Source of the DNA: Desulfobacterales bacterium
Lineage (GTDB): Bacteria; Desulfobacterota; Desulfobacteria; Desulfobacterales; JAHDSC01
Assembly: GCA_040769985.1 (NCBI GenBank)
Contig: JAXGJZ010000005.1
Span: 51,426 to 115,425, forward strand
Direction of reading: 5' to 3'
DNA length: 64,000 nt
The translations under genes were made by a program, and so were the position numbers. Numbering within the stretch: position 1 is the stretch's first letter; each line of letters opens with the position of its first letter. The notes under the pieces are model-generated. The model saw nothing but the letters and a program-made list of their open reading frames with translations, did no database searches and was not told where the DNA came from. Shown one piece after another: positions 32,865 through 45,138 of this stretch.

Positions 32865-34721
32865 ATGACGAACCTGCGTATTACCTGTAGCTTTTTTCTG
32901 ATGGTTTTATTATGCGGTTGCATACACAATTTAAATGATTCCGCTTTAGTAGCGGATGAAAAATCGCCTGACGCGGTTTCACGGGAAAACTCCAATGCCT
33001 CTTATTGTCAGTTTGATTATCAGAATGATGATCCCATGTTTTTTCCGAACATAACACAGGCCGATTCCTCTGTACCCGACAATTCTACGGAAGAAGTGGA
33101 TCCAATGGAAGGCACGGAATCAGAGGGTGAAGATTCCGAGAAGGGGTCTGACCTTACAAAGAAAACGCAATCCATTCTCGACGAAGCCCTGGATCTTTGC
33201 CGGGTATCCCAGGATTACTGGCAAAAAGGAGAATTGGAAAAGGCGATCGAGGCACTGGATCAGGCTTATTCCCTGATTCTTGAAGTGGATGTGAATGACC
33301 GATCCAAGTTCATCCAGCAAAAAGAAGATCTTCGTTTCATGATATCAAAACGGATCCTTGAAATATACGCGTCCCGCCATATCGTTGTTAACGGAAATCA
33401 TAATGCCATTCCCCTCGTGATTAACAAACACGTTCAGTCTGAAATCGATTCGTTTACCAAAGGAAATGAAAAGGAATTTTTTATTGAATCCTACAAACGT
33501 TCCGGAAAGTACCGTGCTCGCATGGCGGAAGAACTCAAACAAGCGGGTCTTCCGGTGGAATTGTCCTGGCTCCCCCTGATCGAAAGCGGATTCAAGGCCA
33601 AAGCGCTTTCATCCGCAAGAGCGCTGGGCCTCTGGCAGTTTATACCATCGACCGGATACAAATTCGGACTGAAACGGGACACGTTCATTGATGAACGCCT
33701 TGACCCTGAAAAATCAACAAGGGCCGCCATTGATTATCTGAAAGAGCTTCATCAGATGTTTGGAGATTGGTCAACGGTTCTGGCGGCTTATAACTGCGGC
33801 GAAGGAAAAGTGCTGCGGGTGATCCGAGATCAAAACGTTAATTATCTCGACAACTTCTGGGACCTTTATGAACGGCTCCCGCGGGAAACCGCAAGATATG
33901 TCCCCAGATTCCTTGCCACCCTTCATATCGTCGGTTGCCCGGAAAAATACGGTCTTGATCAAATCGATATCTGCTCTCCCCTCGTATATGAGACGGTAAT
34001 CGTCTCGAAACAAATCCATTTCAAGGATATATCAAGAAAAACCGGAATTTCCGAACTCCTGTTAAAAGAGTTGAACCCGGAACTTCGTTATAACATATTG
34101 CCGAACGATAAGTATGTTCTAAAAATCCCTTCCGGCAACCAGGATCTGTTGCTTGCCAATCTCGATGAAATACCCGTCGTATCCACCCCAAGGCCCGCCT
34201 TCGTGAATCACCGGGTCAGATCCGGCGAGACCTTGTCTTCCATCGCCATGCGATACCGCACAAGCGTCCAGAATATCGCCCGGGCAAACAACCTGCATCG
34301 AAAAAACTATATCGTAACTGGAAAAGTACTCAAAATTCCCGCGAAAGGAGGCATTTCATATCCCCCCCTTCCTTCTGAAAAAACCGATCCGAAAATGTGT
34401 AAAAATGATGGGAAACACATCGTAAAGAGCGGCGACTCTCTCTGGAATATCGCCAAGCGATATGGGACAACCACTCAAAAAATCTGCGGAGTGAACAATC
34501 TTTCAAGCACCAACCTAACGATCGGGCAGATATTGAAGATTCCCGGATGCGAAAACGAAAAACCGGTGCCTTCCGGGTCCAAAACCTATCGGGTCAAACG
34601 CGGAGATAGTCCATTCAAGATCGCGCAACAATACAATATGTCTCTGGAACAATTGTTGAACCTGAACAACCTGACACAAAACAGCAAGATTTATCCCGGC
34701 CAGAAACTTTATACCGAATAA
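32865..34721 (+). CDS. Lipoprotein lytic transglycosylase (MltD-like SLT domain) with three C-terminal LysM repeats
   Basis: ORF 32808..34721. Start at ATG 32865, preceded by AAGGA. Signal/lipobox LMVLLCGC. SLT core LPLIESGFKAKALSSARALGLWQFIPSTG. Three LysM units (HRVRSGETLSSIA.., HIVKSGDSLWNIA.., YRVKRGDSPFKIA..). Confidence 0.9.
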   Translation: MTNLRITCSFFLMVLLCGCIHNLNDSALVADEKSPDAVSRENSNASYCQFDYQNDDPMFFPNITQADSSVPDNSTEEVDPMEGTESEGEDSEKGSDLTKKTQSILDEALDLCRVSQDYWQKGELEKAIEALDQAYSLILEVDVNDRSKFIQQKEDLRFMISKRILEIYASRHIVVNGNHNAIPLVINKHVQSEIDSFTKGNEKEFFIESYKRSGKYRARMAEELKQAGLPVELSWLPLIESGFKAKALSSARALGLWQFIPSTGYKFGLKRDTFIDERLDPEKSTRAAIDYLKELHQMFGDWSTVLAAYNCGEGKVLRVIRDQNVNYLDNFWDLYERLPRETARYVPRFLATLHIVGCPEKYGLDQIDICSPLVYETVIVSKQIHFKDISRKTGISELLLKELNPELRYNILPNDKYVLKIPSGNQDLLLANLDEIPVVSTPRPAFVNHRVRSGETLSSIAMRYRTSVQNIARANNLHRKNYIVTGKVLKIPAKGGISYPPLPSEKTDPKMCKNDGKHIVKSGDSLWNIAKRYGTTTQKICGVNNLSSTNLTIGQILKIPGCENEKPVPSGSKTYRVKRGDSPFKIAQQYNMSLEQLLNLNNLTQNSKIYPGQKLYTE

Positions 34722-35202
34722 TCTTCGCTGGATCACCCCGGGGTGTAAAGGATAAGATTGTTTGAAAATGCTCAATTTCGGTCAGGTTCAAGGAAGACGG
34801 CAATTTGCACCGCGGGAATACATTATGTATTTCGAAGATTTAACTCAGACTCCATCGTGAAAAGCCTAAAAACTTTAATGGAAAAGACAGTTTCGAAAAA
34901 AGCTTCCGAAAGTAATACGCGTGAGTCCTGAAAAATGAAAAATAGGTTCTTGAACGTCGCAATAGCAAAGGATGAAACGCAACACCGCATCTATGTTTTT
35001 TGCAAAGATTTTCGAAAAGGAGACTGACCCTGGAACCGGAGGAAAAAAGGCGTGGCAAAAGGGTCTCTTGAAACCAATTTGAATTCTGAGACCTTTCCAT
35101 AATTTCTCCTTTCTGCCGGTTTCTCCATTCATAAAGGAAAAATCAGTATTTTTCCCTTGATTAAAACTTCCTTTTTTTGAATAATCACTCGCCATATGAC
35201 TC

Positions 35203-35278
35203 GCCCCCGTAGCTCAGTGGATAGAGCAATGGATTCCTAATCCATGTGCCGCAGGTCCGATTCCTGCCGGGGGCACCA
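35203..35278 (+). tRNA. tRNA-Arg (anticodon CCT); its 3' 47 nt form attL
   Basis: GCCCCCGTAGCTCAGTGGATAGAGCA-ATGGA-TTCCTAA-TCCAT-GTGCC-GCAGGTCCGATTCCTGC-CGGGGGCACCA. Confidence 0.93.
35232..35278 (+). repeat. attL core (47-bp direct repeat, inside the intact tRNA-Arg)
   Basis: gattcctaatccatgtgccgcaggtccgattcctgccgggggcacca, identical to 43293-43339. Confidence 0.92.
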
Positions 35279-35289
35279 ATAAAATCAAA

Positions 35290-35320
35290 GGCTTACGGTT
35301 AAATGCTGTAAGCCTTTTTT
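35290..35320 (+). terminator. Rho-independent terminator for tRNA-Arg, encoded by the island side of attL
   Basis: GGCTTAC-11 nt-GTAAGCC followed by TTTTTT, 12 nt after the CCA end. Confidence 0.65.
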
Positions 35321-35332
35321 GTTTAATGGCGG

Positions 35333-35359
35333 TTCCAGTCCCGCTATAGTCCCGCTTTT
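35333..35359 (+). repeat. 27-bp direct repeat, left copy (candidate integrase arm-type site)
   Basis: ttccagtcccgctatagtcccgctttt, identical to 43150-43176. Contains a tandem GCGGGACT half-site on the minus strand. Confidence 0.6.
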
Positions 35360-35386
35360 GGAAAAAATTAAGCTTGTCCACCAAAT

Positions 35387-35410
35387 AAAAAAGCGGGATA
35401 TTAACCCCGC
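35387..35410 (-). terminator. Rho-independent terminator (island operon, distal)
   Basis: Minus strand reads GCGGGG-TTAATAT-CCCGC-TTTTTTATTT. Confidence 0.6.
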
Positions 35411-35491
35411 TTTCTCTAAAAATTAACTCTCAATTTTGCTATCGAATCGGTTACAACTTTTACCTGCCTGATGATTTTTTCCGCCAAAAGC

Positions 35492-35513
35492 AAAAAAGCG
35501 GGACAATCCCGCC
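35492..35513 (-). terminator. Rho-independent terminator (island operon, proximal)
   Basis: Minus strand reads GGCGGGA-TTG-TCCCGC-TTTTTTGC, about 170 nt after the last island ORF. Confidence 0.65.
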
Positions 35514-35684
35514 TTTCTGCAATGAATCTTCGTAAATTCAAACTGTTTCGCCGTTATTGGCCAAAAACGGCTTAGCCATTTGGCGTATGAGAAACGATCT
35601 ACTTTCAGCCCATATCAAGGTATGGCCTTTTTATTTTATCCCCTTAAAACGTGAATCATACGGCCTTGATTTGTTCGTCATGGC

Positions 35685-36041
35685 TCATTGTATGCGTCCA
35701 TGAACAAAAACACAGATATTTCCGGCTCCTGAAGTGTCAAGCGTCAAAGCTGTTCCCGGTGAAAGCGCCATTCCGCCCCTGGTGGTGAAGCCCCATTGAA
35801 GGGTCGTATTTTCCGCCATTGCAAGCGGTCCGATAAGCGCCGATGTCACCGCCGCGCCTGTTTTTCCTTGGCCGATTGTCACGGTCAAAGTCGCGCCAAC
35901 ATTTACCATTAGATGATCCACAAAAATTGATTTCCCTGAAACCGCTGCCACAAGTTCTTCACAGCCGCTTGCATCCGCCGATACTCCATTGACAATGAAT
36001 CCGAATTCCCCCGCCTGTGGTGTCGTGATTGAAATTGCCAT
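35685..36041 (-). CDS. Island orphan protein, 118 aa, Gly/Ala/Thr/Val-rich (probably all-beta)
   Basis: ATG preceded by GGAGGAATT. No motif I recognise. Last gene before the terminators. Confidence 0.6.
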   Translation of the reverse strand: MAISITTPQAGEFGFIVNGVSADASGCEELVAAVSGKSIFVDHLMVNVGATLTVTIGQGKTGAAVTSALIGPLAMAENTTLQWGFTTRGGMALSPGTALTLDTSGAGNICVFVHGRIQ

Positions 36042-36157
36042 AATTCCTCCGTTTGTTTTTTTGTTTTTGAGTAAAGCGCGGCGTTCTGGACGGTGAACCC
36101 CGCGCTCTTATCGCCGTGCCAACTCCCATATTGTTTCACGGCGAATCGATACGCGGC

Positions 36158-36880
36158 TTATCGCCGCAATACTTTCTTAATCTTTTCCAGTGTTTTTCCA
36201 ATCTTCCAGTCCATTTCATCGTCCGAAGGTAAAAGGTCCCTGGCGCTGGGTAGCTTTGAACCTGGAATAGGTCGGCTGCCGGTGGTTTCGGTGAATTCGT
36301 CAATATTCGGTACGTCGGCTCGAAGCTGTTCAATTTTTTCAATATTCAATTCCGGTTCAAGTTTCATTGACTCCAAGGTCTTGATTGCATTCCGGCAATA
36401 CGCCAAAGCCTTGACAATCGCCTTCTGATTGCTGGCCGCCGTGGTTTTTTCGGTCATGTCGATTAGGTTTTGTTTTTTTCCTTCAAATCTTGCGGAAGGC
36501 TTAATCTGCATAAACTTTGCATGAAGGCCTCGAAAAAGCTCAATTTCGCGGTCAATCCGGCTGTCGGCGCTGTTTAGCAACTCGGCTTCCAGGTTTCCAA
36601 TCAAGTTTTCCGTGAAAAGGCGTTTGCTGATGGTTTCGGCCTTCTTTCGGGTGATCTCGGCTCTAAGCTTTTGCGCTCTGGCTTCGATCTCTCTTAATTC
36701 CTGTTCTTCCTTTTCCGCGACGGTGTAAGGCGTCGGCAATTCGGACAATTCGGCTTTCAATTCGGCAATTTTGGAAGCGGCTTCTGTTCTCTTTTTCAAC
36801 AATTCGGCGGCCTTTTCCGCCAAAATTTGTTGCGTTAGCGGGTGGCCTTCGATTGTTTTTAGCAATTCTTTTGAGTCCAT
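36158..36880 (-). CDS. Island orphan protein, 240 aa, predicted coiled-coil
   Basis: Long heptad-like Glu/Lys/Leu/Ala stretches (KIAELKAELSEL.., EIEARAQKLRAEITRKKAE). Tight spacing with the upstream gene. Confidence 0.6.
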   Translation of the reverse strand: MDSKELLKTIEGHPLTQQILAEKAAELLKKRTEAASKIAELKAELSELPTPYTVAEKEEQELREIEARAQKLRAEITRKKAETISKRLFTENLIGNLEAELLNSADSRIDREIELFRGLHAKFMQIKPSARFEGKKQNLIDMTEKTTAASNQKAIVKALAYCRNAIKTLESMKLEPELNIEKIEQLRADVPNIDEFTETTGSRPIPGSKLPSARDLLPSDDEMDWKIGKTLEKIKKVLRR

Positions 36881-36886
36881 AGGCGT

Positions 36887-37156
36887 TTATTTTCCTTTCG
36901 TTTTTGATGTTTTTTCATAATCTTTCATGGCTTGTGGCTTTTCGCCTGGTCGAAGTGGCATATATCCAAATACGCCTGGGATTCTTGGAATTCCCTGGAG
37001 GCTCAAAATATATTCCCGATTCTCGAACCAAGCTGCCTTTCTGTGTGAGTCTGATTCAAAAGGCATCACGTTGCCAAGGCACCATCCATAAATGAGATGT
37101 TCGATTTGTCGGCCGGTAAGTCCTTGATTAATTTTAGATTTCATTAAAATTGTCAT
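36887..37156 (-). CDS. Island orphan protein, 89 aa
   Basis: ORF 36887..37189. The ATG at 37156 overlaps the upstream stop as TAATG (translational coupling). Confidence 0.5.
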   Translation of the reverse strand: MTILMKSKINQGLTGRQIEHLIYGWCLGNVMPFESDSHRKAAWFENREYILSLQGIPRIPGVFGYMPLRPGEKPQAMKDYEKTSKTKGK

Positions 37157-37488
37157 TAGTTCCTCTTGTTTTTTTTTGCTTGTTCCCAATACGTCGGTCG
37201 GCCTGGTCCCCTGGTCGCCGTGTTGTCTGTTTCAAGCTTTAATTGTTTCATGGCGCTTAGAAATTGGCTCTGTGCATCCCTTATTGTCGCCAGTAGCGGG
37301 TGCGCCTTCGTTCCGCCCCGGTCGCCTTGAACGGTCATTCCTTCCGCTCGAACAATGGCCATTGCCGAATGTTTAAGGTCGTAGGCTTCCAAAGCCGCGT
37401 CCAGAATCGCCAATGAAGCGTCGTCGGCGAATTCAAATTGTTCCAAGATTGATTTTTTGAGCTTTTCCGCCTTTTCTGATAGTTCCAT
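37156..37488 (-). CDS. Phage small-terminase-like protein (P27 / Terminase_4-like)
   Basis: Core DDASLAILDAALEAYDLKHSAMAIVRAEGMTVQGDRGGTKAHPLLATIRDAQSQFLSAMKQLKL. It follows the D..L...c.ay....a...i..eG......G....hP......a......l..lgL pattern of P27-family TerS, recalled from memory. Start at either 37488 or 37506. Confidence 0.5.
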   Translation of the reverse strand: MELSEKAEKLKKSILEQFEFADDASLAILDAALEAYDLKHSAMAIVRAEGMTVQGDRGGTKAHPLLATIRDAQSQFLSAMKQLKLETDNTATRGPGRPTYWEQAKKNKRN

Positions 37489-37611
37489 GTGTCCTCCTTT
37501 TGGCAATAAAGGAAAAAAATAAATGCGTTTTCGTTGAAGGAGCCACCCGGTTAACCCGCTTGAAAGCTCCTATGATTTAACCCCCCCTATCCACCTGTTA
37601 TTATTCCATAA

Positions 37612-38064
37612 TCAGAATGGAATGTTTTCCCATTCAAGAAGTTTTCTTTTTATTGCTTTTTCGTCAACTTCGATGGTCTTCTGCCTGTTCACCCAGCGAA
37701 GGCATTCCACTAAAAACTTTTTCACCGTCGCCGGTGGTGTCCCGTTTCGGATCTGCAATCTAATCGCCGGATCGCCGCTGATGAGTTCGGCGGTGCTTCC
37801 TGACAGTGTGACGTTTTCCATTTCTTCCCCGGTGCATATGTTTTCGTGCCGATTGCAAAGGATGAGCTGATAAAAATATCCAATCCGCCTATCCGTGTCC
37901 GTCATGCGTTTCAGTAATTGGATTCGTTCCGGTTCGTTCCGATAGCCGCGCAAATCGAGAAAGCCGTCACGTTCGCCGTTTAAAAGCCTGAAGAAATCAC
38001 TGAAACTGATCGTGATTGATTCTGCCTGTAAATCATCCTCGTTGATGTTTAGTTGTACCTGCAT
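37612..38064 (-). CDS. Island orphan protein, 150 aa
   Basis: Intact ORF in the co-directional array. No recognisable motif. Confidence 0.5.
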   Translation of the reverse strand: MQVQLNINEDDLQAESITISFSDFFRLLNGERDGFLDLRGYRNEPERIQLLKRMTDTDRRIGYFYQLILCNRHENICTGEEMENVTLSGSTAELISGDPAIRLQIRNGTPPATVKKFLVECLRWVNRQKTIEVDEKAIKRKLLEWENIPF

Positions 38065-38091
38065 TGTTTATTTATCCTTCCTATGTTTTAT

Positions 38092-38418
38092 TTATATTCT
38101 TTCGCTTTTCCTTGGCCGCCATATATTTAAAAGAAACATTAAGCCTTCGTCCTTGGTCTTTTCGGTGATAATGCCGGACCGATAGCCGCGCATTAAAATC
38201 ATGTATCGCTGGGTAAATTCCACGTTTGATAAAAAGCGCCTGGTGTCTATGGTCGTGACCTGGTCAAGAAGTGCCTGCTTCAATAGCCTTGCCTTGTGTG
38301 TTTTTGCATATTCAACCGCCTTCCTGGCTTCGTCCGGGTGCAGCTTAGACAGTCCCTTGATTTTCAACTTGCCGTTTTCAAGGTCCGCTGTGATGGATAG
38401 TTCGGAAAAAATATTCAT
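38092..38418 (-). CDS. Island orphan protein, 108 aa (N-terminus weakly resembles a TubC-N-type docking motif)
   Basis: ADLENGKLKIKGLSKLHPDEARKAVEYAKTHKARLLKQAL resembles the G.L.y....L.pe....l..hK..Ll..L motif. Weak. Confidence 0.45.
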   Translation of the reverse strand: MNIFSELSITADLENGKLKIKGLSKLHPDEARKAVEYAKTHKARLLKQALLDQVTTIDTRRFLSNVEFTQRYMILMRGYRSGIITEKTKDEGLMFLLNIWRPRKSERI

Positions 38419-38430
38419 AGTTCCACCTCA

Positions 38431-38628
38431 TCAATTTGTTTCGGTGACGATATGACGATGGTGATAAAACGTCCGGCTTTCGTCCTGCCGATAGACAAAT
38501 TGATTCCGGTTTTTCTCAAAAAACTGGCTGCTCGTTTCAGTCGCCTTGACAGTGCATTTGCGCCTTTCGGCCATGTTTTTTCTTTTCTGGTGCTTTCGGG
38601 TTCTCTTTCGTTCAGTTTTGCTTAACAA
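38431..38628 (-). CDS. Island small basic protein, 65 aa or shorter
   Basis: Arg/Lys-rich N-terminus. The real start may be MAERRKC (38574). Coding status is uncertain. Confidence 0.3.
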   Translation of the reverse strand: MLSKTERKRTRKHQKRKNMAERRKCTVKATETSSQFFEKNRNQFVYRQDESRTFYHHRHIVTETN

Positions 38629-38678
38629 AGAATGTACATAGCAATATAACCCTTTAATTTTTTTTTATTTCTCTTTAT

Positions 38679-39896
38679 CTATGTATATTCTTTGTGAAGC
38701 AAGCCCGGTATTCCGTCAAAAATTTCAGACCCACCGATGAGATCAACCCCTTTTTGAGATAGCTGCCATGTCCAAGCTGCGGTTTCGCCAGTGCCGTCCA
38801 GATCCTGATTCAACAATCCAATGGAGGCAAGGTCTTCAAGAATGACCTTTGCCGTTGTTGCGGGCATCCCGGTTGTTTTTGCGATTTCTTTTGTTTTCCG
38901 CCATTCGGACAGCACTTCAAAAACCTTTTCAACCCACAGACTTTGAATAATTTTCAACCGGTGCTTGCTGATTAAATCTCTCCCGATTTTTTTCACGGTT
39001 TCATATATGGATTCATCGATGCACTTTTTGCCACGAACACACGCCAGCGCCATCCCCATTTGTAGAAATTGCTTCGCCAGTCGCGCCGGGCCTTCCGGTT
39101 CGGGCTGATATTGGATGCACTGTGTCCGATAATCCCGTTCGACAACACACCGCCCATATGCGCAAAATACCGCAAGAGTCACTATCAGGGATTCAACATC
39201 TTCCGGAGTTTGCTCAAACTGGATGCTTTCCGCGTCAAACTGGTTTACAAATTTATGAACCGCATCCCTGATTTCTTTGCGCATGAGAGTTTCTTTTCCC
39301 ACATTTTTGATAGCTTTCATTCCCATGTGGTATTCATCTCTTGTATTACTTCGATACAAAAGGAATCGATCCCCCATTGAGCCAATGACGGAATAGTGCC
39401 GGTCGTAAACTGGAGTGCATGCCCCCATAAACCCCACATGGCCCTGCCAATCAATTTTCACGCCCGTTCCGAAAGCTTTAGAATAACTACCGTCGTAAAC
39501 CTCTCTAAGCTGTGCAAGAATCTCCTGCTGCTGTTCGCTTCGCATGGAAAGCACTGTGGTAAAATCTTTCAGTACAAGCGTTTTGTCATTCAGTTTTGGC
39601 AGTAAAGACGGTTGCGGTGTGCTTTTCGTCGGTTTTTGACCACTGATTAGAGTTGAAGGCGTTAACGATGAAAGGAAGCAAGTTTGCGGGTGCCCTTCAA
39701 ACCCACGCAATAACTCTGTCTTAGTAGTCGAGGGTGGAGCAATAAACAACATCCATAAAGGATCGGTTTGGAACTGATTTGCCAAATGGACGGCAAGCAT
39801 AACGTCAATCACGGTGTCGTCTTCTATGAAAAGATGTTTTTTAATTACCGTTTTTAGAGTTTCTAAAGGAAATTTTAATCCGTTTTCGTGTTCCAC
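38679..39896 (-). CDS. AAA+-like protein with degenerate Walker A (APPSTTKT) and a C-terminal winged-helix; putative replication initiator/helicase-loader-like protein
   Basis: FIAPPSTTKTELL at residues 51-63 mirrors GPPGTGKT with all Gly replaced. LVLKDFT is Walker-B-like. C-terminal KEIAKTTGMPATTAKVILEDLASIGLL is wHTH-like. Directly follows the primase and overlaps it by 56 nt. Confidence 0.5.
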   Translation of the reverse strand: MEHENGLKFPLETLKTVIKKHLFIEDDTVIDVMLAVHLANQFQTDPLWMLFIAPPSTTKTELLRGFEGHPQTCFLSSLTPSTLISGQKPTKSTPQPSLLPKLNDKTLVLKDFTTVLSMRSEQQQEILAQLREVYDGSYSKAFGTGVKIDWQGHVGFMGACTPVYDRHYSVIGSMGDRFLLYRSNTRDEYHMGMKAIKNVGKETLMRKEIRDAVHKFVNQFDAESIQFEQTPEDVESLIVTLAVFCAYGRCVVERDYRTQCIQYQPEPEGPARLAKQFLQMGMALACVRGKKCIDESIYETVKKIGRDLISKHRLKIIQSLWVEKVFEVLSEWRKTKEIAKTTGMPATTAKVILEDLASIGLLNQDLDGTGETAAWTWQLSQKGVDLIGGSEIFDGIPGLLHKEYT

Positions 39897-40824
39897 TTTC
39901 GGGGTCTCCTCGTTTTACGAAAATTAAGCCTGTTGATGTCTGTAACTGCTGCTTCACCGCATCGATTCCTTCAAGTGCATATAAGTCATTAAAGTCGCTC
40001 GGCTTCGTGGCAACATCCTTAAAGCGCGGTGCGGCAACCTTGCCCTTGACAGCCAAGGCCGCCTGTCGTGCCTTGCTAAGTCCAGGATTTCCTTCGGTCC
40101 ATCGGTCGTCATCCGCGCAAACGACGATTTCAGCTTTTGGGTATTTCTGCCGGATCGTTCGCGCAACTGGAAGAAGGTTTCCCGCGTCGAAGGCAATTAT
40201 CGTATGGCCGCCTGTAGCCATGTGAACGGCCGCCGTAGTTGCGAAGCCTTCGCCAATATAAACGGTGTCGCCGTTGCCTGGGATCTCAAAGAAGTGTCCG
40301 GCCTTTTGTCCACCAGGGAGAAAGCGTTTCGTTCCGTCGCCTGAAATAAACTGTAAGGTTCGGATCGTCCCGCTTGCGTCCCGTGCCGGAATGATAAGCC
40401 GTCCGTCCTTGGCAACCCGCAAACCACCATAAGCTTGAACCCGCTTCTTTCGTAAATACTGGTGATCGGTCGCCGGTGTTGAGTGATCCCATATCCGCAA
40501 GGCTTTTTCGGCTGCTGCCTTGTGGATTCGCGCTTGCTCTGCTTCCCGGATTTGCTTTTGTTGTTCAATCCGTCGTAGGAAGTCTTCTCGTTCTTCCGGT
40601 GAAAGCTCGGATTGCTTTTTTTGACACCAAGTGAAGGATTCCCCGGCCTTCCAATCGCCGAAGCTTCCCGCTGGAATTCCGTCACCGTGTAAACAATACC
40701 AACCATCGGGGTTTTTACTTCCGTTCGGTCGGAAACGGTGGAGGCATCCGTCCGGGATTATTTCTTCCTGAAGGTCAATACCAGCCGCCGCCATTGCTTC
40801 CCTGAATTGTCCAAGCTCGATCAT
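39841..40824 (-). CDS. Phage/plasmid-type DNA primase (COG4643-like N-terminal domain plus Toprim domain)
   Basis: IIPDGCLHRFRPNGSKNPDGWYCLHGDGIPAGSFGDWKAGESFTWC N-domain. Toprim core VYIGEGFATTAAVHMATG..IAFDAGNL..IVVCADDD..NPGLSKARQAA. The ATG at 40824 lies 1 nt after the upstream stop. A TTG alternative is at 40836. Confidence 0.85.
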   Translation of the reverse strand: MIELGQFREAMAAAGIDLQEEIIPDGCLHRFRPNGSKNPDGWYCLHGDGIPAGSFGDWKAGESFTWCQKKQSELSPEEREDFLRRIEQQKQIREAEQARIHKAAAEKALRIWDHSTPATDHQYLRKKRVQAYGGLRVAKDGRLIIPARDASGTIRTLQFISGDGTKRFLPGGQKAGHFFEIPGNGDTVYIGEGFATTAAVHMATGGHTIIAFDAGNLLPVARTIRQKYPKAEIVVCADDDRWTEGNPGLSKARQAALAVKGKVAAPRFKDVATKPSDFNDLYALEGIDAVKQQLQTSTGLIFVKRGDPESGTRKRIKISFRNSKNGN

Positions 40825-40825
40825 G

Positions 40826-41065
40826 TTAGGACTCAACCTTCAGACGGTCAGCGAGCCATTGACAAAATGACGGGGTCAAATAAGCGATTTTCCGGCCCGA
40901 TCTGATTCGGCCGCCCGGTCCCTTTTTTTGGCTGTCAAGGTTCGCCAAATACTTCGGACTAAGAAGCCCTCCGGTGACGCGTTCAGCTTCTTTTCGGCTA
41001 ATACAGAACGGAAAAGTTTTTTGAATTGATTCTAAGATACTGGAATAATTGATGTTTTGTGACAT
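40826..41065 (-). CDS. Small HTH DNA-binding protein (AlpA/excisionase-like)
   Basis: 79 aa from the ATG at 41065 (GGGAGG 7 nt upstream). ISRKEAERVTGGLLSPKYLANLDS...GRKIAYLTPSFCQWL resembles excisionase-family HTH. Its position between int and the primase is typical. Confidence 0.45.
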   Translation of the reverse strand: MSQNINYSSILESIQKTFPFCISRKEAERVTGGLLSPKYLANLDSQKKGPGGRIRSGRKIAYLTPSFCQWLADRLKVES

Positions 41066-41149
41066 GATATTACCTCCCAAATGTTATTTAACCACTTTTG
41101 GGAAGCAATATAACGTATGGTAATCCCGGCTAATGGATAGCCGGGATTT

Positions 41150-41788
41150 TTATTTTGCAGATTTTTTGATTTTTTTCTTCAATGTGGTATATCTGGTTTG
41201 GAAGGATTTAAATGAAGTGGCTCGTTCCTTGCCGCTTTTTGTTTTCCAATAAATTGTCCATTGTCGTGTATCGCCTGATCCGTCGTCGATTTCCTGAACG
41301 ATATCGTTTTCTGATAGTTCGGTCCACAGCTCTTTTGCCGAAGGGTGTCGGCCATGTTCGGAAAAGTACTTCCGCCAAAGTGAAAGCATCTCTTCGCTTA
41401 ATGCGTCCAAGCGCTCGCGTTTCGGCGCTTCGATGAAGGGCTTCACTCGTAGATAGGAATTCCAACCTACAAGGTTAAGCCAATCACTGTAAGCGTTTTC
41501 AAAAGCGGAAATATGTTCCTGAAAAAGCGTGCTGTTTTCTTTGAGTATTGAAAGAACATCTTCCGCCGATAACAAGAATTTCAAAGTCGCTTCGGTCCCG
41601 CTGTGGCCTTTTCCGTTTGTCCTTTGATATTCGCATTCAAGATATTGTTCTATCGGCTGGATTATTTCCCTCTCGATGGTCTGATTCAAACAGGTACGCC
41701 GGTCTTTAGGTGGGATCTCGATAAGCTCGTTAAGGATGGATAACAGATTTTCAAATTCTCCGGGGTCAAGCAGATGGTCAAGATTCAT
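41150..41788 (-). CDS. Island orphan protein, 212 aa
   Basis: ORF 41150..41884. The plausible start is MNLDHLLDPGEF at 41788. Acidic/helical. No recognisable motif. Confidence 0.5.
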   Translation of the reverse strand: MNLDHLLDPGEFENLLSILNELIEIPPKDRRTCLNQTIEREIIQPIEQYLECEYQRTNGKGHSGTEATLKFLLSAEDVLSILKENSTLFQEHISAFENAYSDWLNLVGWNSYLRVKPFIEAPKRERLDALSEEMLSLWRKYFSEHGRHPSAKELWTELSENDIVQEIDDGSGDTRQWTIYWKTKSGKERATSFKSFQTRYTTLKKKIKKSAK

Positions 41789-41895
41789 AATTTGCGCGTC
41801 CCTCTTCGCGTCCCTTCGTTTGGTGGTGTGTGCCTTGCCGGTCGGGTGAAGGTGTCCCGATTTTCCGCCCGTCGGCGTAGGCAAGGCAAGTGTAG

Positions 41896-43116
41896 TTATT
41901 TTATACTTAGAATTTTATTTTGCTCATTTTTTGATTTATTGATTTTTTCCTGCAACCCATTGACGGCATTTTGTAATGTCGATTCGCTCAAGTGACTGTA
42001 TCTTTCGGTCTGGCTCAACGTCCGATGTCCAAGAAGCTCTTTGACGGCATAAAGGCTGACTCCGCTTTCCACCAGCCACGAAGCGTATGAATGCCGAAGA
42101 GCATGAAAGACAACCCTTTGCCTTTTGTCGGCAATTCCGGCATTGAGTTTCAGGTCCTTGACAGTTCGTTGAAAGACGTTTGATATCCGTTCTATTTTTT
42201 TCCCATGCCGATCTGGAAAAACAAATTCATGTTTTTTCCCGTGATCCATTTCTTGGAGCATGGTTTTCAAGTCGCCGGTCATGTACGCCGTCCGGGTCCT
42301 GCTGTTCTTGGTATCTCGGAGTGTCAAAAGGCCTCGATCGATATCAACATCGCCCCAGGTCAAAGCGAAAATTTCACCCGCTCTTAAGCCGGAATGAAGG
42401 CTTAGAAGCGCCATTCGGTAAGTCTGAAGGCTTCGGCTTTTCAAGCTTTCAAGCAGCTTGTCGGCTTCTTCGTGTGTCAGGAACCTTAAGCGCCTGTTGT
42501 CCACCTTGGGGAGTCGAACCCTCCTTGTCGGTGGTTCGGTATTGACCAGGCCGTCCCGGCGCGCCAAATTCCAAACTTGGCGGATAATGGCTGTTATGTA
42601 TTCAATTGTACGTGCGGATCGTCCAGCGTCCAGCAAATTCTTTTTGATCTGCTCGATGTTAAAAGGCGACACCTTCCCAAGTGGGATATCGCCAATAACG
42701 GGCTCGATCCACCTGGTGTAATAAATTTCCTCCGCTTTACAGGTTGAGGCTTTTTTCGATAATTTTGATATCGGAAAATAGGTTTCCAGCCAAAACCGCT
42801 GGAAAGTGACATTGCGCTGTTTATCTTGTCTGGCCTCTTCGTCTTCGGCTTTTTTAATTTCTCTTTTTTCCGCCAAAGTTTGGGGACCGTCACCGACCTT
42901 CCGGTTCTCTTTCAATTCCCTTGCCCTGTCGTAAGCCTTCGCCGCCGTCCAGCCCTCCGAAGACCAACCCAGGCCTTCTTCCTTATCTTTCAGCTTGTCG
43001 CCTTCCCGGACCTTGTATCGAATGGTGAAATATCGATCCTTTTGGATCCCATTTTTCCGGGTCGGGTGTTCCCGATATCTTACACCTGGAAAATTTGTCC
43101 TGGTCCATTTTGCCAT
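41896..43116 (-). CDS. int: Tyrosine recombinase / phage integrase
   Basis: ORF 41896..43149. Start MAKWTRTNFPGVRYREHPTRK at 43116, behind AAGGAA. Catalytic signature LRAGEI...HALRHSYASWLV...LLGHRTLSQTERYSHL (R, HxxR, H, Y). Confidence 0.93.
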   Translation of the reverse strand: MAKWTRTNFPGVRYREHPTRKNGIQKDRYFTIRYKVREGDKLKDKEEGLGWSSEGWTAAKAYDRARELKENRKVGDGPQTLAEKREIKKAEDEEARQDKQRNVTFQRFWLETYFPISKLSKKASTCKAEEIYYTRWIEPVIGDIPLGKVSPFNIEQIKKNLLDAGRSARTIEYITAIIRQVWNLARRDGLVNTEPPTRRVRLPKVDNRRLRFLTHEEADKLLESLKSRSLQTYRMALLSLHSGLRAGEIFALTWGDVDIDRGLLTLRDTKNSRTRTAYMTGDLKTMLQEMDHGKKHEFVFPDRHGKKIERISNVFQRTVKDLKLNAGIADKRQRVVFHALRHSYASWLVESGVSLYAVKELLGHRTLSQTERYSHLSESTLQNAVNGLQEKINKSKNEQNKILSIK

Positions 43117-43149
43117 GATCTTTTTCCTTTTGATTTCGTTCGGTGTCAT

Positions 43150-43176
43150 TTCCAGTCCCGCTATAGTCCCGCTTTT
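43150..43176 (+). repeat. 27-bp direct repeat, right copy (candidate arm-type site / int operator)
   Basis: Identical 27-mer, 34-60 nt upstream of the probable int start (43116) and 116 nt from the attR core. Confidence 0.6.
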
Positions 43177-43292
43177 TTGTCTGAAACAGGGTGTTTTTAA
43201 ATGATGTCTTGTGAAGGTAATATATATCTAACTTATGGAAATGTCAAGTGTTTTGTGTGCTTGTGGGATAGTATGTGAAAGTGCCGAATACA

Positions 43293-43339
43293 GATTCCTA
43301 ATCCATGTGCCGCAGGTCCGATTCCTGCCGGGGGCACCA
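43293..43339 (+). repeat. attR core (47-bp direct repeat, orphan 3' tRNA-Arg fragment)
   Basis: Same 47 nt as attL. The sequence upstream of it does not match the tRNA 5' half. Confidence 0.92.
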
Positions 43340-43674
43340 GCCCAATCATTCTGTGTCGATCCTATTTTTGCTTCCATTCGCTTCAAAAATCGCATTCTAA
43401 AGCCTGCAATCCGCCTCCTATCTAAACGGTTTCATGAGATGTGGGGGTATATATATTTTGAGTTGGTCATGTGATCGGGGAATCGTTCTTGAAGCGCTGA
43501 AATCAAAGAACTCCCCGCCTGCTGATCTGTTTAAGGGTTGCGGACGGTCTAAAATACCCAAGCTCTCTATCTTGTCTTCAGCCGGATTGTTTTTTTCCAT
43601 AAGTCATCCATGGGTTTTCGGTATTGAGCCTCGTCCTGCCCCTGCATTTCGACTTGAGCTTCTATTCTCAGTCA

Positions 43675-45138
43675 TTACGAACGACGGCTTCCCTTTCCGA
43701 TTTGGATTATTTTGAGCGAATCCGTTCCATTCATTTTGTTTCTCGATTCGCATTCCACAAGAATCACGCGCTCATCTCTTTCCAACAATCCTGAATCATC
43801 CATGAATTTAATAAGCTGATCAACCGAAAGATGATTTATATTGTTTTCCATGCAAACCGGGTAAACCCCGCACGACAGTGTCAGGGACTGATTTGCTTTT
43901 TTGTCGCCGCCAAAAGAAAGTATCCAGCAATCGGGTTTAAACCGGGAGATCAGTCTCGGACCACCCCTTCTTTTCGTGCGAGTCAGTATATAGCGTACTT
44001 TTAAGGCTCGGGCGGCTTCAACGGCATTCATGGAAACGATATCCTGAGTGGTTATACTGCTTGGGGTCCGATGCGCTTTGAAGTATGCAGGCAAATCGGA
44101 TAATGCTCTTATCGCACCTCTTTCACGCTCGGCAGAGGCTGCAATTTTAGCCATCATCTCAACCGCTTCGACAGGATACCGCCCTATGGCCGTCTCTTCG
44201 GATAACATCAACGCATCCGTGCCATCCAGAATCGCATTCGCCACATCGGAAACCTCGGCACGGGTCGGTCGAATGTTTTCCGTCATGGATACCAGCATTT
44301 GTGTAGCGGTTATCACCGGACGACCTAAAAGATTTGCCTTGTGGATAAGTTTTTTCTGAACCACCGGCACCTCTTCCAAAGGGATCTGCACTCCCAGGTC
44401 ACCTCGGGCGATCATGACAGCATCCGCCTCAGCCAGTATCCCATCAAAATCTCTTACGGCCTCCTCTCGTTCAATTTTAGCCACCACATAAACGGGTTTT
44501 TTTCTTTTTTCTGCAAACTCCCTCACTTTGATTATGTCATCCGCTGTTTCTGCAAATGAAACGCCCAAGGCATCGATCCCCTCCCGTAATGCAAAATCAA
44601 CATACTCGAGGTCCGAATCCGAAACCGCATCGGCAAAAATTCTTACTCCTGGAAGACTGAGACCTTTATAGGAAAGAAGTGGACCGCTGATAAGTGTGCG
44701 ACAGAAAACCTCATCTCCCGATATCCTCTCTACCTCGAGCTGTATAAATCCGTCATTGAGAAAGATACGGCTTCCCGGGCTTACGCTTTCAGACAATCTG
44801 CCGTAGTCAACCGGTATGTGGTTCGATGTGCCGAGAATGTCTCTGGTGGTCAAGACTACCTGATCCCCCTTTTCAAATGCAATCGGTTCACTCCGGAGTT
44901 TACCGATGCGTATCTTGGGACCGGGAAGGTCCGCCATGATCATGCAATGGCGCTGAATCTTAGCAGCCACCGTGCGTATCCGTCGGATATCCTCCTTATG
45001 TCCCTGCAAAGTTCCATGGGCAAAATTCAGCCGTGCCACATTCATTCCCTGTAGAATAAGCCGTTCCAAAACAGCCTCTGAGCGGGAGGCCGGGCCTATG
45101 GTGCAGACAATCTTGGTTTTATGAGTCGGCAACTTCAC
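43675..45138 (-). CDS. pyk: Pyruvate kinase
   Basis: ORF 43675..45225. KTKIVCTIGPAS start region. GTG at 45138 is preceded by GGAGGA (6-nt spacer), giving 487 aa. MVARGDLG-like IARGDLGVQIP motif. Confidence 0.93.
   Translation of the reverse strand: MKLPTHKTKIVCTIGPASRSEAVLERLILQGMNVARLNFAHGTLQGHKEDIRRIRTVAAKIQRHCMIMADLPGPKIRIGKLRSEPIAFEKGDQVVLTTRDILGTSNHIPVDYGRLSESVSPGSRIFLNDGFIQLEVERISGDEVFCRTLISGPLLSYKGLSLPGVRIFADAVSDSDLEYVDFALREGIDALGVSFAETADDIIKVREFAEKRKKPVYVVAKIEREEAVRDFDGILAEADAVMIARGDLGVQIPLEEVPVVQKKLIHKANLLGRPVITATQMLVSMTENIRPTRAEVSDVANAILDGTDALMLSEETAIGRYPVEAVEMMAKIAASAERERGAIRALSDLPAYFKAHRTPSSITTQDIVSMNAVEAARALKVRYILTRTKRRGGPRLISRFKPDCWILSFGGDKKANQSLTLSCGVYPVCMENNINHLSVDQLIKFMDDSGLLERDERVILVECESRNKMNGTDSLKIIQIGKGSRRS

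Follow-up and report, generated by a model that had tools for sequence, protein, structure and literature searches.

In a 64-kb window of a Desulfobacterales genome (the whole 64,000-nt stretch analysed here, from contig JAXGJZ010000005.1), an interval of 8,061 bp is inserted in a tRNA-Arg(CCT) gene and is probably an integrative, helper-dependent phage satellite of the phage-inducible chromosomal island (PICI) kind; we infer its helper dependence, induction and packaging. The element combines an architecture of the PICI type with unannotated gene families, and it lies in a phylum for which a literature search gave no described satellites: a full-text search returned no paper linking phage satellites with Desulfobacterota, Thermodesulfobacteriota, Smithella or Syntrophales. 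Since satellites are expected to be widespread, we treat this as a lead rather than a surprise.

The element is inserted as a discrete unit at the 3' 47 nt of the tRNA-Arg(CCT) gene, which it regenerates, and it is polymorphic between strains of the species. The intact tRNA gene at one end and the orphan copy of its 3' end at the other, both proposed from the DNA letters alone in the original prediction, were recovered by ARAGORN and by a repeat search of the 64-kb window, the two copies being identical over 47 nt with the CCA included and 8,061 bp apart from start to start. The chance that an exact 47-mer recurs within 64 kb is negligible, judged from 4^47. The flanks are housekeeping genes, for an SLT/LysM transglycosylase and a pyruvate kinase, and the remainder of the window is the rpoBC, tuf and ribosomal-protein region. 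The RpoC encoded there is identical to HPA15745.1, a protein labelled 'Desulfobacterales bacterium', and the cluster to which the EF-Tu belongs is represented by a Thermodesulfobacteriota protein. An identical pyruvate kinase is found in another assembly of the same species (GCA_018432925.1, locus L001), where the transglycosylase gene is only 0.9 kb away. BLASTN aligned this locus to the window over 34578-35278 at 100% identity and over 43293-43838 at 99.8%, with an overlap of exactly the 47-nt core, and it is a precise empty bacterial attachment site (attB) that retains a single 47-mer. The same empty junction is present in a Logan contig (L008, SRR27676576). Seven of the ten other Logan contigs with an identical pyruvate kinase terminate within the attachment (att) core, at 43310, as assembly graphs are expected to branch at a polymorphic site. 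A JGI contig (L128) has the same chromosomal setting, its tRNA-Arg lying beside a Thr/Tyr/Gly/Thr tRNA cluster, and there a different mosaic element occupies the same tRNA-Arg attB. The empty site that had been proposed for related genomes is therefore found, the flanks of L001 and L008 joining across one 47-mer, and the 8 kb are not conserved at the locus, which is empty in some strains and differently occupied in L128. The element is recently mobile. It also supplies the tRNA with a terminator, which is absent from the empty site and is identical after a tRNA-Asn in another element (L126).

Between the att cores lie twelve open reading frames (ORFs), all on the minus strand, intact, co-directional and tightly packed (Table 1). 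Their proteins were searched against Pfam, PHROGs, NCBIfam and PADLOC at E ≤ 0.1. The profile searches agreed with the predicted content of a tyrosine integrase, a Toprim primase and a P27-family small terminase (TerS) among twelve co-directional ORFs. The predicted count of twelve ORFs stands, but one of them, the 65-aa orf6, is probably no gene, since it overlaps a conserved inverted repeat and starts inside one of its arms. The two tandem intrinsic terminators that had been proposed behind the last gene fold on the minus strand as hairpins followed by U-runs (-22 and -19.6 kcal/mol, z -2.9 and -4.8) and are kept in L064, L126 and L128. None of the ORFs matched a large terminase (TerL), portal, capsid, tail, holin or lysis family, and none a relaxase, type IV coupling protein (T4CP) or oriT-associated family, so that the stated lack of structural genes, terL and relaxase holds up against sensitive profile searches. 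The idea that the orphan genes might be anti-phage genes did not: PADLOC detected no defence family, its matches being coiled-coil or winged helix-turn-helix (wHTH) noise, and we rejected it. The product of orf2, in an accessory slot between the integrase and the regulator, matched nothing in any library and nothing in related loci; orf7 had no family match in the library searches, and orf8 none in Pfam, PHROGs, NCBIfam or PADLOC. It is extremely improbable that the element is an autonomous minimal virus or phage-plasmid that makes its own particles. Although some of its relatives encode an HK97-type major capsid protein (MCP), with or without a prohead protease, the largest ORFs without an assignment in the window element are of 240-244 aa, too short for an MCP, portal or TerL, and no structural family was detected.

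In the SatelliteFinder model, PICIs are defined by an integrase, an alpA/merR/stl-type regulator, a primase-replicase, an optional capsid morphogenesis gene and a TerS, with tail, holin, portal and head-tail connector or adaptor genes as forbidden components and with those that have no capsid morphogenesis gene classed as Type B (PMC10085698). The components of PICIs, P4 and capsid-forming PICIs (cfPICIs) were judged here with Pfam and PHROGs, and for P4 also with NCBIfam. The integrase, primase-replicase and TerS are present and the regulator, orf3, is matched through a family profile alone; no capsid-morphogenesis family was found in any ORF by Pfam or PHROGs, and no forbidden component at the same threshold as above. 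With orf3 counted as a putative regulator, the element would have four of the five core components and be the equivalent of Type B. Its likeness to the PICIs of Gram-negative bacteria, such as EcCICFT073, extends to a size of 8 kb, flanking att sites, the lack of tail, holin, portal and adaptor genes, and the gene order of integrase, accessory slot, putative AlpA-type regulator, primase/replicase, terS and accessory genes. Co-directional genes without an Stl-type divergent repressor are the typical layout of Gram-negative PICIs, and the genes in the window are likewise co-directional with no obvious repressor of this type. The element differs from PICIs in its phylum, in an MCM-like replicase with its own inverted-repeat candidate origin, and in a late cassette that has a putative head-accessory jellyroll protein and a novel 240-aa family but no capsid-morphogenesis homologue. 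Of the PICIs known so far, over 99.9% belong to Proteobacteria or Firmicutes (PMC10085698).

Other satellites fit less well. The cos-type Staphylococcus aureus pathogenicity islands (SaPIs) such as SaPIbov5 encode the capsid homologue Ccm, and SaPIbov5 uses the cos site of its helper and has no TerS of its own. Relatives of the window element resemble these islands, and proteobacterial PICIs with their capsid-morphogenesis component, in carrying a single HK97-type MCP; the window element itself differs, having no MCP homologue and a P27-family TerS. P4 has the decoration protein Psu, the external scaffold Sid and the alpha primase-helicase with an ori-binding domain, and lacks TerS. The likeness to P4 is one of functional analogy only, in the integration at a tRNA gene, in the primase, NTPase and putative origin-binding winged helix, which in the window are split over two genes, and hypothetically in a putative small capsid-decoration protein and a candidate capsid-size protein of ~240 aa. 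No ORF matched psu, delta, sid, epsilon or alpha in Pfam, PHROGs or NCBIfam. The layout had been described as PICI/P4-type; the PICI part of that description (int, alpA-like, pri/rep and terS) stands, whereas the P4 part does not, no Psu, Sid, delta or epsilon having been found. The cfPICIs need capsid, protease, portal, head-tail adaptor or connector and terL genes (PMC10085698), and the element shares with them the integrase-regulator-primase module and terS, but none of those other genes was found. Because the defining genes of P4 and of cfPICIs were searched for and not found, the element is neither P4-like nor a cfPICI. The marine virion-encapsidated integrative mobilizable elements (VEIMEs) were found encapsidated as concatemers and have no capsid genes (PMC9618062). 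Together with the PICMIs (minimalist islands of the phage-inducible chromosomal kind) they resemble the window element as environmental satellites of uncultured hosts recognised from sequence, with tyrosine integrases, AlpA, primase/helicases and, in some, TerS (PMC9618062, PMC10803314). Unlike the VEIMEs, the window element is known from its genes alone and its family often has an MCP together with a head-accessory gene, which would suggest capsid remodelling rather than the packaging of concatemers.

The terS gene belongs to a late cassette, orf8-terS-orf10-orf11-orf12, that is shuffled among elements differing in integrase, replication module and tRNA target. GCA_018432925.1, with its empty tRNA-Arg site, carries a second element (L064) at tRNA-Met, within a 100-nt att repeat whose copies are 8,566 bp apart. 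The early genes of L064 encode a P4-type integrase, a D5-type helicase and a DnaG-type primase, and its last five proteins are 95% (orf8), 91% (terS), 95% (orf10), 73% (orf11) and 88% (orf12) identical to those of the window, the cassette as a whole being 86.7% identical at the nucleotide level over 2,689 bp with the terminators included. The same cassette also ends the elements in L126 (at tRNA-Asn), L127 and L128. In L128, orf8, terS and orf10 have been swapped together for divergent alleles and orf11 (74%) and orf12 (96%) have been kept, which suggests that the first three genes may form a packaging-specificity unit, separate from a capsid-related unit, with a specificity that can be exchanged. 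The stretch concerned (L128:3060-3662) holds a P27-like terS allele of 100 aa and another partner of 94 aa, between the orf8-like gene and orf11. Outside the tRNA-Met satellite, ~0.5 kb beyond its att repeat, there is a CBASS-like defence pair of SMODS and SLATT_4 genes (L064:1366-3047).

The terS gene has 13 detectable homologues. Five contexts were examined: besides the satellite-like island L064, these are two small islands with terS beside an HK97 capsid gene (L065 and L067), a short and uninformative fragment (L066) and, for a distant copy, a circular IMG/VR contig (L040). The shuffled cassette bears on whether the element could instead be a non-satellite integrative island, either an integrative and mobilizable element (IME) or self-replicating, that is moved by conjugative mobilisation, vesicles or transformation and in which terS and orf12 are cargo or relics. 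An integrase with a replication module would suit an IME as well, no helper has been identified and this copy offers no evidence of packaging; the primase, moreover, has a very weak match of 22 bits, where the cutoff is 930, to TIGR02760 TraI in its C-terminal part. Nevertheless, such an island is unlikely. No relaxase, T4CP or oriT-associated family was matched, as described above, and the cassette containing terS is 87-98% conserved and co-inherited across different early modules, from which we argue that it is under selection and functional. Relatives also carry HK97 capsid genes, and two of them were recovered as circular IMG/VR contigs.

Whether found by way of the integrase, orf3 and orf5 or by way of terS and orf12, the relatives measure 8-11 kb (8.5, 8.6 and 9.4 kb for those with defined bounds) and adjoin tRNA genes in a common polarity. 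Many have just one HK97-type MCP gene, among them L012, L040, L065, L067, L068 and L080; in L040, L065, L067 and L080 a P27-type terS is next to it or close by, and the MCP of L040 forms a fusion with a prohead protease. In the relatives examined, neither detection nor gene calling gave a portal, TerL or tail gene. The IMG/VR contigs L040 (~10 kb) and L080 (~11 kb) have terminal overlaps of 119 nt and so were assembled as circles. Both carry an integrase, a primase, terS and an MCP, L040 with an orf5 homologue in addition and L080 with an orf12 homologue, and no portal, terL or tail gene was among the proteins identified in them. A tRNA 3' fragment next to the integrase gene of L080 is consistent with a phage-type attachment site (attP). 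Two further relatives (L013:7392-9095 and L014:5501-7099) combine an AEP-TOTE primase with a GpA_ATPase-type large terminase and have orf5 homologues 75-79% identical to that of the window. The called genes of L014, a 9.4-kb contig, include no capsid gene, and the putative element in L013 measures ~12.7 kb from its gene span to a flanking tRNA-Arg; these two may be satellites that bring their own TerL.

The family also bears on the possibility that the element is a decayed remnant of a larger prophage whose structural genes have been lost. It does have an integrase, a primase, terS and a protein of the head module, and its MCM-like protein is also found in IMG/VR phage contigs of 30-75 kb. Against decay, the att cores are identical and intact, the arm repeats are intact and the same species offers a precise empty site; the ORFs are likewise intact, packed, co-directional and closed by terminators. 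Several independent relatives, two of them circular, have the same size of 8-11 kb and the same gene set, and we consider a prophage remnant very unlikely.

The last two genes of the cassette may act on capsids. The predicted jellyroll protein orf12 has 91 homologues, none of them annotated, and by sequence 36 members of the family had no Pfam or PDB match. Foldseek matched its model weakly to the KHP40 trimeric cement protein (TM-score 0.53) and to the HFTV1 turret protein, and also to many Caudovirales proteins of ~110 aa. An HK97-type MCP is present on the same contig in 47 of the 56 IMG/VR loci with an orf12 homologue, and it is upstream of that homologue in all 47 but one, the circular L080, where it is downstream. 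The orf12 homologue follows the capsid gene immediately in the small islands L068, L069, L071, L087 and L117, and in the other MCP-bearing contigs it lies 1-4.6 kb downstream of the MCP. In the full phage L070 it precedes the head-tail adaptor, head-closure and tail-terminator genes; the same phage has an HNH homing-endonuclease gene inserted directly after its major capsid gene (L070:7940-8632). The closest homologue (P0141, 92% identical) is at the end of a satellite next to a tRNA-Asn. From the predicted fold and the position of the gene, we propose with moderate confidence that orf12 is a capsid accessory protein, of the decoration or cement type. The family of orf11 comprises 259 cluster representatives (E ≤ 1e-3) of ~240 aa that align end to end. 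Its profile gave only coiled-coil noise against the PDB and PHROGs (HA2 and M protein, for example), and the idea of a hidden capsid or scaffold protein gained no support from this search. The HMM and alignment are too divergent for locus scans, which found nothing in 56 phage and satellite loci at E ≤ 50; an exact look-up found one 1.3-kb contig alone. Among the loci fetched, orf11 is confined to satellite-type late cassettes, and by analogy it might remodel the capsid of the helper. For both orf11 and orf12 a specific role at the capsid is tentative, and we hold it somewhat less likely than not.

Replication would probably depend on orf5, for which at least 514 homologues were found, all labelled 'hypothetical' and without a Pfam domain. 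An AAA+-like protein with a winged helix had been predicted here, and the AlphaFold2 (AF2) model (pLDDT 88.7, pTM 0.89) agrees, its fold resembling that of an MCM-like AAA+ ATPase, with a weak profile match for the C-terminal wHTH. The top Foldseek matches, from the MCM/BchI (PS1 beta-hairpin) group, were MCM2-7 and SsoMCM (both in the AAA+ and winged-helix part) and BchI, with E between 7e-9 and 1e-6, probability 1.0, TM-scores of 0.45-0.5 and 11-15% identity; the N-terminal domain of MCM is not present. The family has an invariant, atypical P-loop-like APPSxxKTE and an LVLKDF motif. On the model, orf5 is a probable replication initiator or helicase. It is partnered by different primases, of the Toprim type in the window, AEP-TOTE in L013 and L014 and PriCT in L040, and it occurs in small islands as well as in the phage contigs mentioned above. 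The family ranges over Thermodesulfobacteriota, Nitrospinaceae, Ignavibacteriales, Omnitrophota, Actinomycetota, bacteria of the candidate phyla radiation (CPR) and DPANN archaea. Its members at 31-35% identity (L028-L037) are from Actinomycetota, CPR (Terrybacteria, Saccharibacteria) and DPANN (Nanoarchaeota, Woesearchaeota).

Beside the orf5 gene, an inverted repeat straddles its stop codon and the start of orf6, with a spacer that is 84% AT in the window. In L012-L020 and L039-L041, which are otherwise mosaic, the same repeat recurs where the orf5 homologue ends, at its stop codon or no more than ~40 nt away, with the arm consensus GCTTAACAArGAATATACATAG and a spacer of 34-49 nt that is 60-84% AT across the relatives. 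In a scripted comparison, an inverted-repeat score of at least 14 was reached by 9 of 50 segments downstream of orf5 homologues and by none of 145 controls. The repeat and its AT-rich spacer are probably a candidate initiator binding site and unwinding element, inherited with the initiator gene. More distant orf5 relatives have a different repeat, of the TTTCCCGAAA type. We make no claim for CGAAAG 'iterons' near the origin, as the motif is not enriched window-wide and its four clustered copies were noticed post hoc.

Residues 106-380 of the integrase align to residues 66-338 of lambda Int, and it has an N-terminal extension of ~105 aa that is likely, from the alignment, to be an arm-binding domain. 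Exact copies of AGTCCCGCT occur only four times in the 64 kb, two in the P' arm and a pair at 43154-43173. As the extension sits where an arm-binding domain is expected, these tandem motifs are candidate arm-type sites of the integrase. The 27-nt arm motif is kept at 100% in L126 and L128 and is different in L064, which has another type of integrase. A more distant relative (L012, in a 5.77-Mb genome) has a 47-nt tRNA-Phe core repeat with copies 8,519 bp apart and, just within both ends, another tandem motif, TCCTTGTACA twice, in the same geometry as in the window. At the attR end the arm motif lies between a sigma-70-like site and the int start codon, 5-25 nt upstream of the latter, so autoregulation of the integrase gene would be possible. 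The ~110 nt that follow the CCA, comprising the tRNA terminator and the arm motif, are essentially identical in the window (35279-35386), L126 (1990-2100) and L128 (5180-5285). In L126 the adjoining tRNA is Asn(GTT), not Arg, and L064 differs over the same stretch. This suggests that related integrases may have been retargeted between tRNAs (Arg and Asn) by a change of the core alone, which is a lead only because the integrase of L126 is not on the contig.

For the element as a satellite, the following course may be proposed. The integrase would bind the core derived from the tRNA as well as the tandem AGTCCCGCT arm sites near either end and, together with the wHTH protein orf3 as excisionase and/or activator, would excise a circle upon infection by, or induction of, a helper. 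The primase and the MCM-like protein would replicate this circle from the inverted-repeat, AT-rich site after orf5. The satellite TerS would pair with the TerL of the helper for the packaging of satellite DNA, and the orf12 jellyroll, possibly with the coiled-coil protein orf11, would bind or remodel capsids made of the HK97-type protein of the helper. Such remodelling would suit a genome of ~8 kb, in analogy to what Psu and Sid achieve for P4. An HK97-type tailed helper phage would supply the functions of tail, portal, TerL and lysis. The circular IMG/VR relatives and the polymorphism between strains bear on induction and packaging indirectly.

Several points weigh against a satellite. No helper phage has been identified, and the co-resident helper prophage envisaged in the original prediction is not found in the 64-kb window, which holds no prophage. 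This TerS subfamily has been met in satellite-type contexts alone (L064, L065, L067 and L040, none a full phage), and orf5, terS, orf11 and orf12 had no match among 50,697 GenBank phage records, so no cultured system anchors the satellite inference. No excised circle or packaged form of the window element has been observed, no pac or cos site was identified in it and it has no recognisable repressor or helper-sensing gene. By itself orf3 gives no AlpA/HTH_17 or other Pfam match at the threshold used, and the roles of orf11 and orf12 draw on a moderate-confidence model (pLDDT 79), on weak PDB matches with E ~5e-3 and on gene position.

Known phage satellites are almost all from Proteobacteria and Firmicutes, and as a satellite the element would extend the concept to Thermodesulfobacteriota, represented here by uncultured anaerobes in a phylum with few cultured phages. 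A wider proposal, which we regard as doubtful, is that it belongs to an undescribed modular lineage of satellites in Thermodesulfobacteriota and neighbouring phyla, defined jointly by three features. The first would be a self-contained initiator-origin unit, exchanged among phages and satellites of bacteria, CPR and DPANN archaea. The second would be a swappable late cassette that constitutes a new hijacking strategy, in which TerS, with orf8 and orf10 co-varying, is joined by a novel capsid-remodelling factor of 240 aa and by a capsid decoration protein that the satellite itself encodes. The third would be an integrase lineage that retargets Arg and Asn tRNAs by exchange of the core, with identical arm sites. 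Within the species, module swapping shows diversification, one cassette being combined with two unrelated integrase/replication sets and three tRNA targets. The element provides exact att junctions, arm sites, a candidate origin and a conserved five-gene late cassette as handles, and it brings to light three protein families of some size that lack annotation, those of the MCM-like initiator, orf11 and orf12. The initiator-plus-origin unit may aid the annotation of 'hypothetical' genes in phage and satellite genomes.

Table 1. Features of the element and its insertion site, in window coordinates.
Feature	Position	Strand	Evidence or remark
Intact tRNA-Arg(CCT)	35203..35278	+	ARAGORN; last 47 nt (35232-35278) are the attL core
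tRNA terminator supplied by the element, hairpin and T-run	35287..35323	+	fold -18.4 kcal/mol, z -5.3
P' arm, 27-nt motif TTCCAGTCCCGCTATAGTCCCGCTTTT with two tandem AGTCCCGCT sites	35333..35359	+	repeat search
Two tandem intrinsic terminators ending the late operon (~35417->35388, ~35517->35490)	35388..35517	-	RNA folds and U-runs
orf12, 118 aa, predicted all-beta jellyroll	35685..36041	-	AF2 pLDDT 79
orf11, 240 aa, N-terminal coiled coil and conserved C-terminal domain	36158..36880	-	
orf10, 89-100 aa, abuts terS stop codon	36887..37189	-	95% identical in L064, 98% in L127
TerS, 116 aa, P27 / Terminase_4 family	37156..37506	-	Pfam 3e-9, 37.6 bits against cutoff 24.7; phrog_83
orf8, 150 aa, first gene of the late cassette	37612..38064	-	95% identical in L064, 51% in L128
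orf7, 108 aa, orphan	38092..38418	-	99% identical copy in L129
'orf6', 65 aa, without homologues	38431..38628	-	doubtful gene
Candidate origin, 24-nt inverted repeat (38618-38641 / 38679-38702), 37-nt spacer	38618..38702	.	
orf5, 405 aa, predicted MCM-like AAA+ ATPase with C-terminal winged helix	38679..39896	-	AF2 and Foldseek
Toprim DNA primase	39841..40836	-	Toprim_3 1.9e-8; phrog_2249 'DNA primase' 2.7e-79
orf3, AlpA/excisionase-type wHTH	40826..41080	-	family profile
orf2, 212-244 aa, orphan in accessory slot between int and regulator	41150..41884	-	
Tyrosine integrase	41896..43149	-	Phage_integrase 1.6e-32; phrog_1 7e-63
P arm, second TTCCAGTCCCGCTATAGTCCCGCTTTT-type 27-nt copy, directly upstream of int start	43150..43176	+	repeat search
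int promoter-like site, TTGACA-17 nt-TATATT, 11/12 matches	43219..43247	-	consensus match alone
attR core, orphan copy of the tRNA-Arg 3' 47 nt	43293..43339	+	exact repeat

The closest relative of the element is a locus in an uncultured Smithella metagenome-assembled genome (L016), with 71% identity in the primase and 92% in orf5. Translation of orf3 likely begins at the ATG at 41065, which a GGGAGG ribosome-binding site precedes. A profile was built from orf3, relatives supported by tblastn or phmmer (L012, L016, L020 and L040) and three positional analogues; its matches were RdfS (8dgl, 3.4e-7) and a protein of the AlpA family (8c3t, 0.016), and six of the eight aligned members matched HTH_17. 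The AlpA-like HTH of the original prediction is therefore recovered through the family profile but not by a direct AlpA or HTH_17 match, and the assignment holds at the superfamily level, orf3 being a putative excisionase, activator or both. Between orf2 and orf3 (41021-41156) there is a hairpin with a perfect 11-bp stem and a T-run on the plus strand only, and a weak promoter-like site on the same strand (41021-41049) could with it yield an RNA of ~100 nt antisense to the start of orf3; we dropped this hairpin and antisense promoter as a regulator, as they are not conserved in relatives. The Smithella element has, upstream of its orf3 homologue (L016:4250-4330), two direct CCCTGAAAATACGC repeats that may be an operator.

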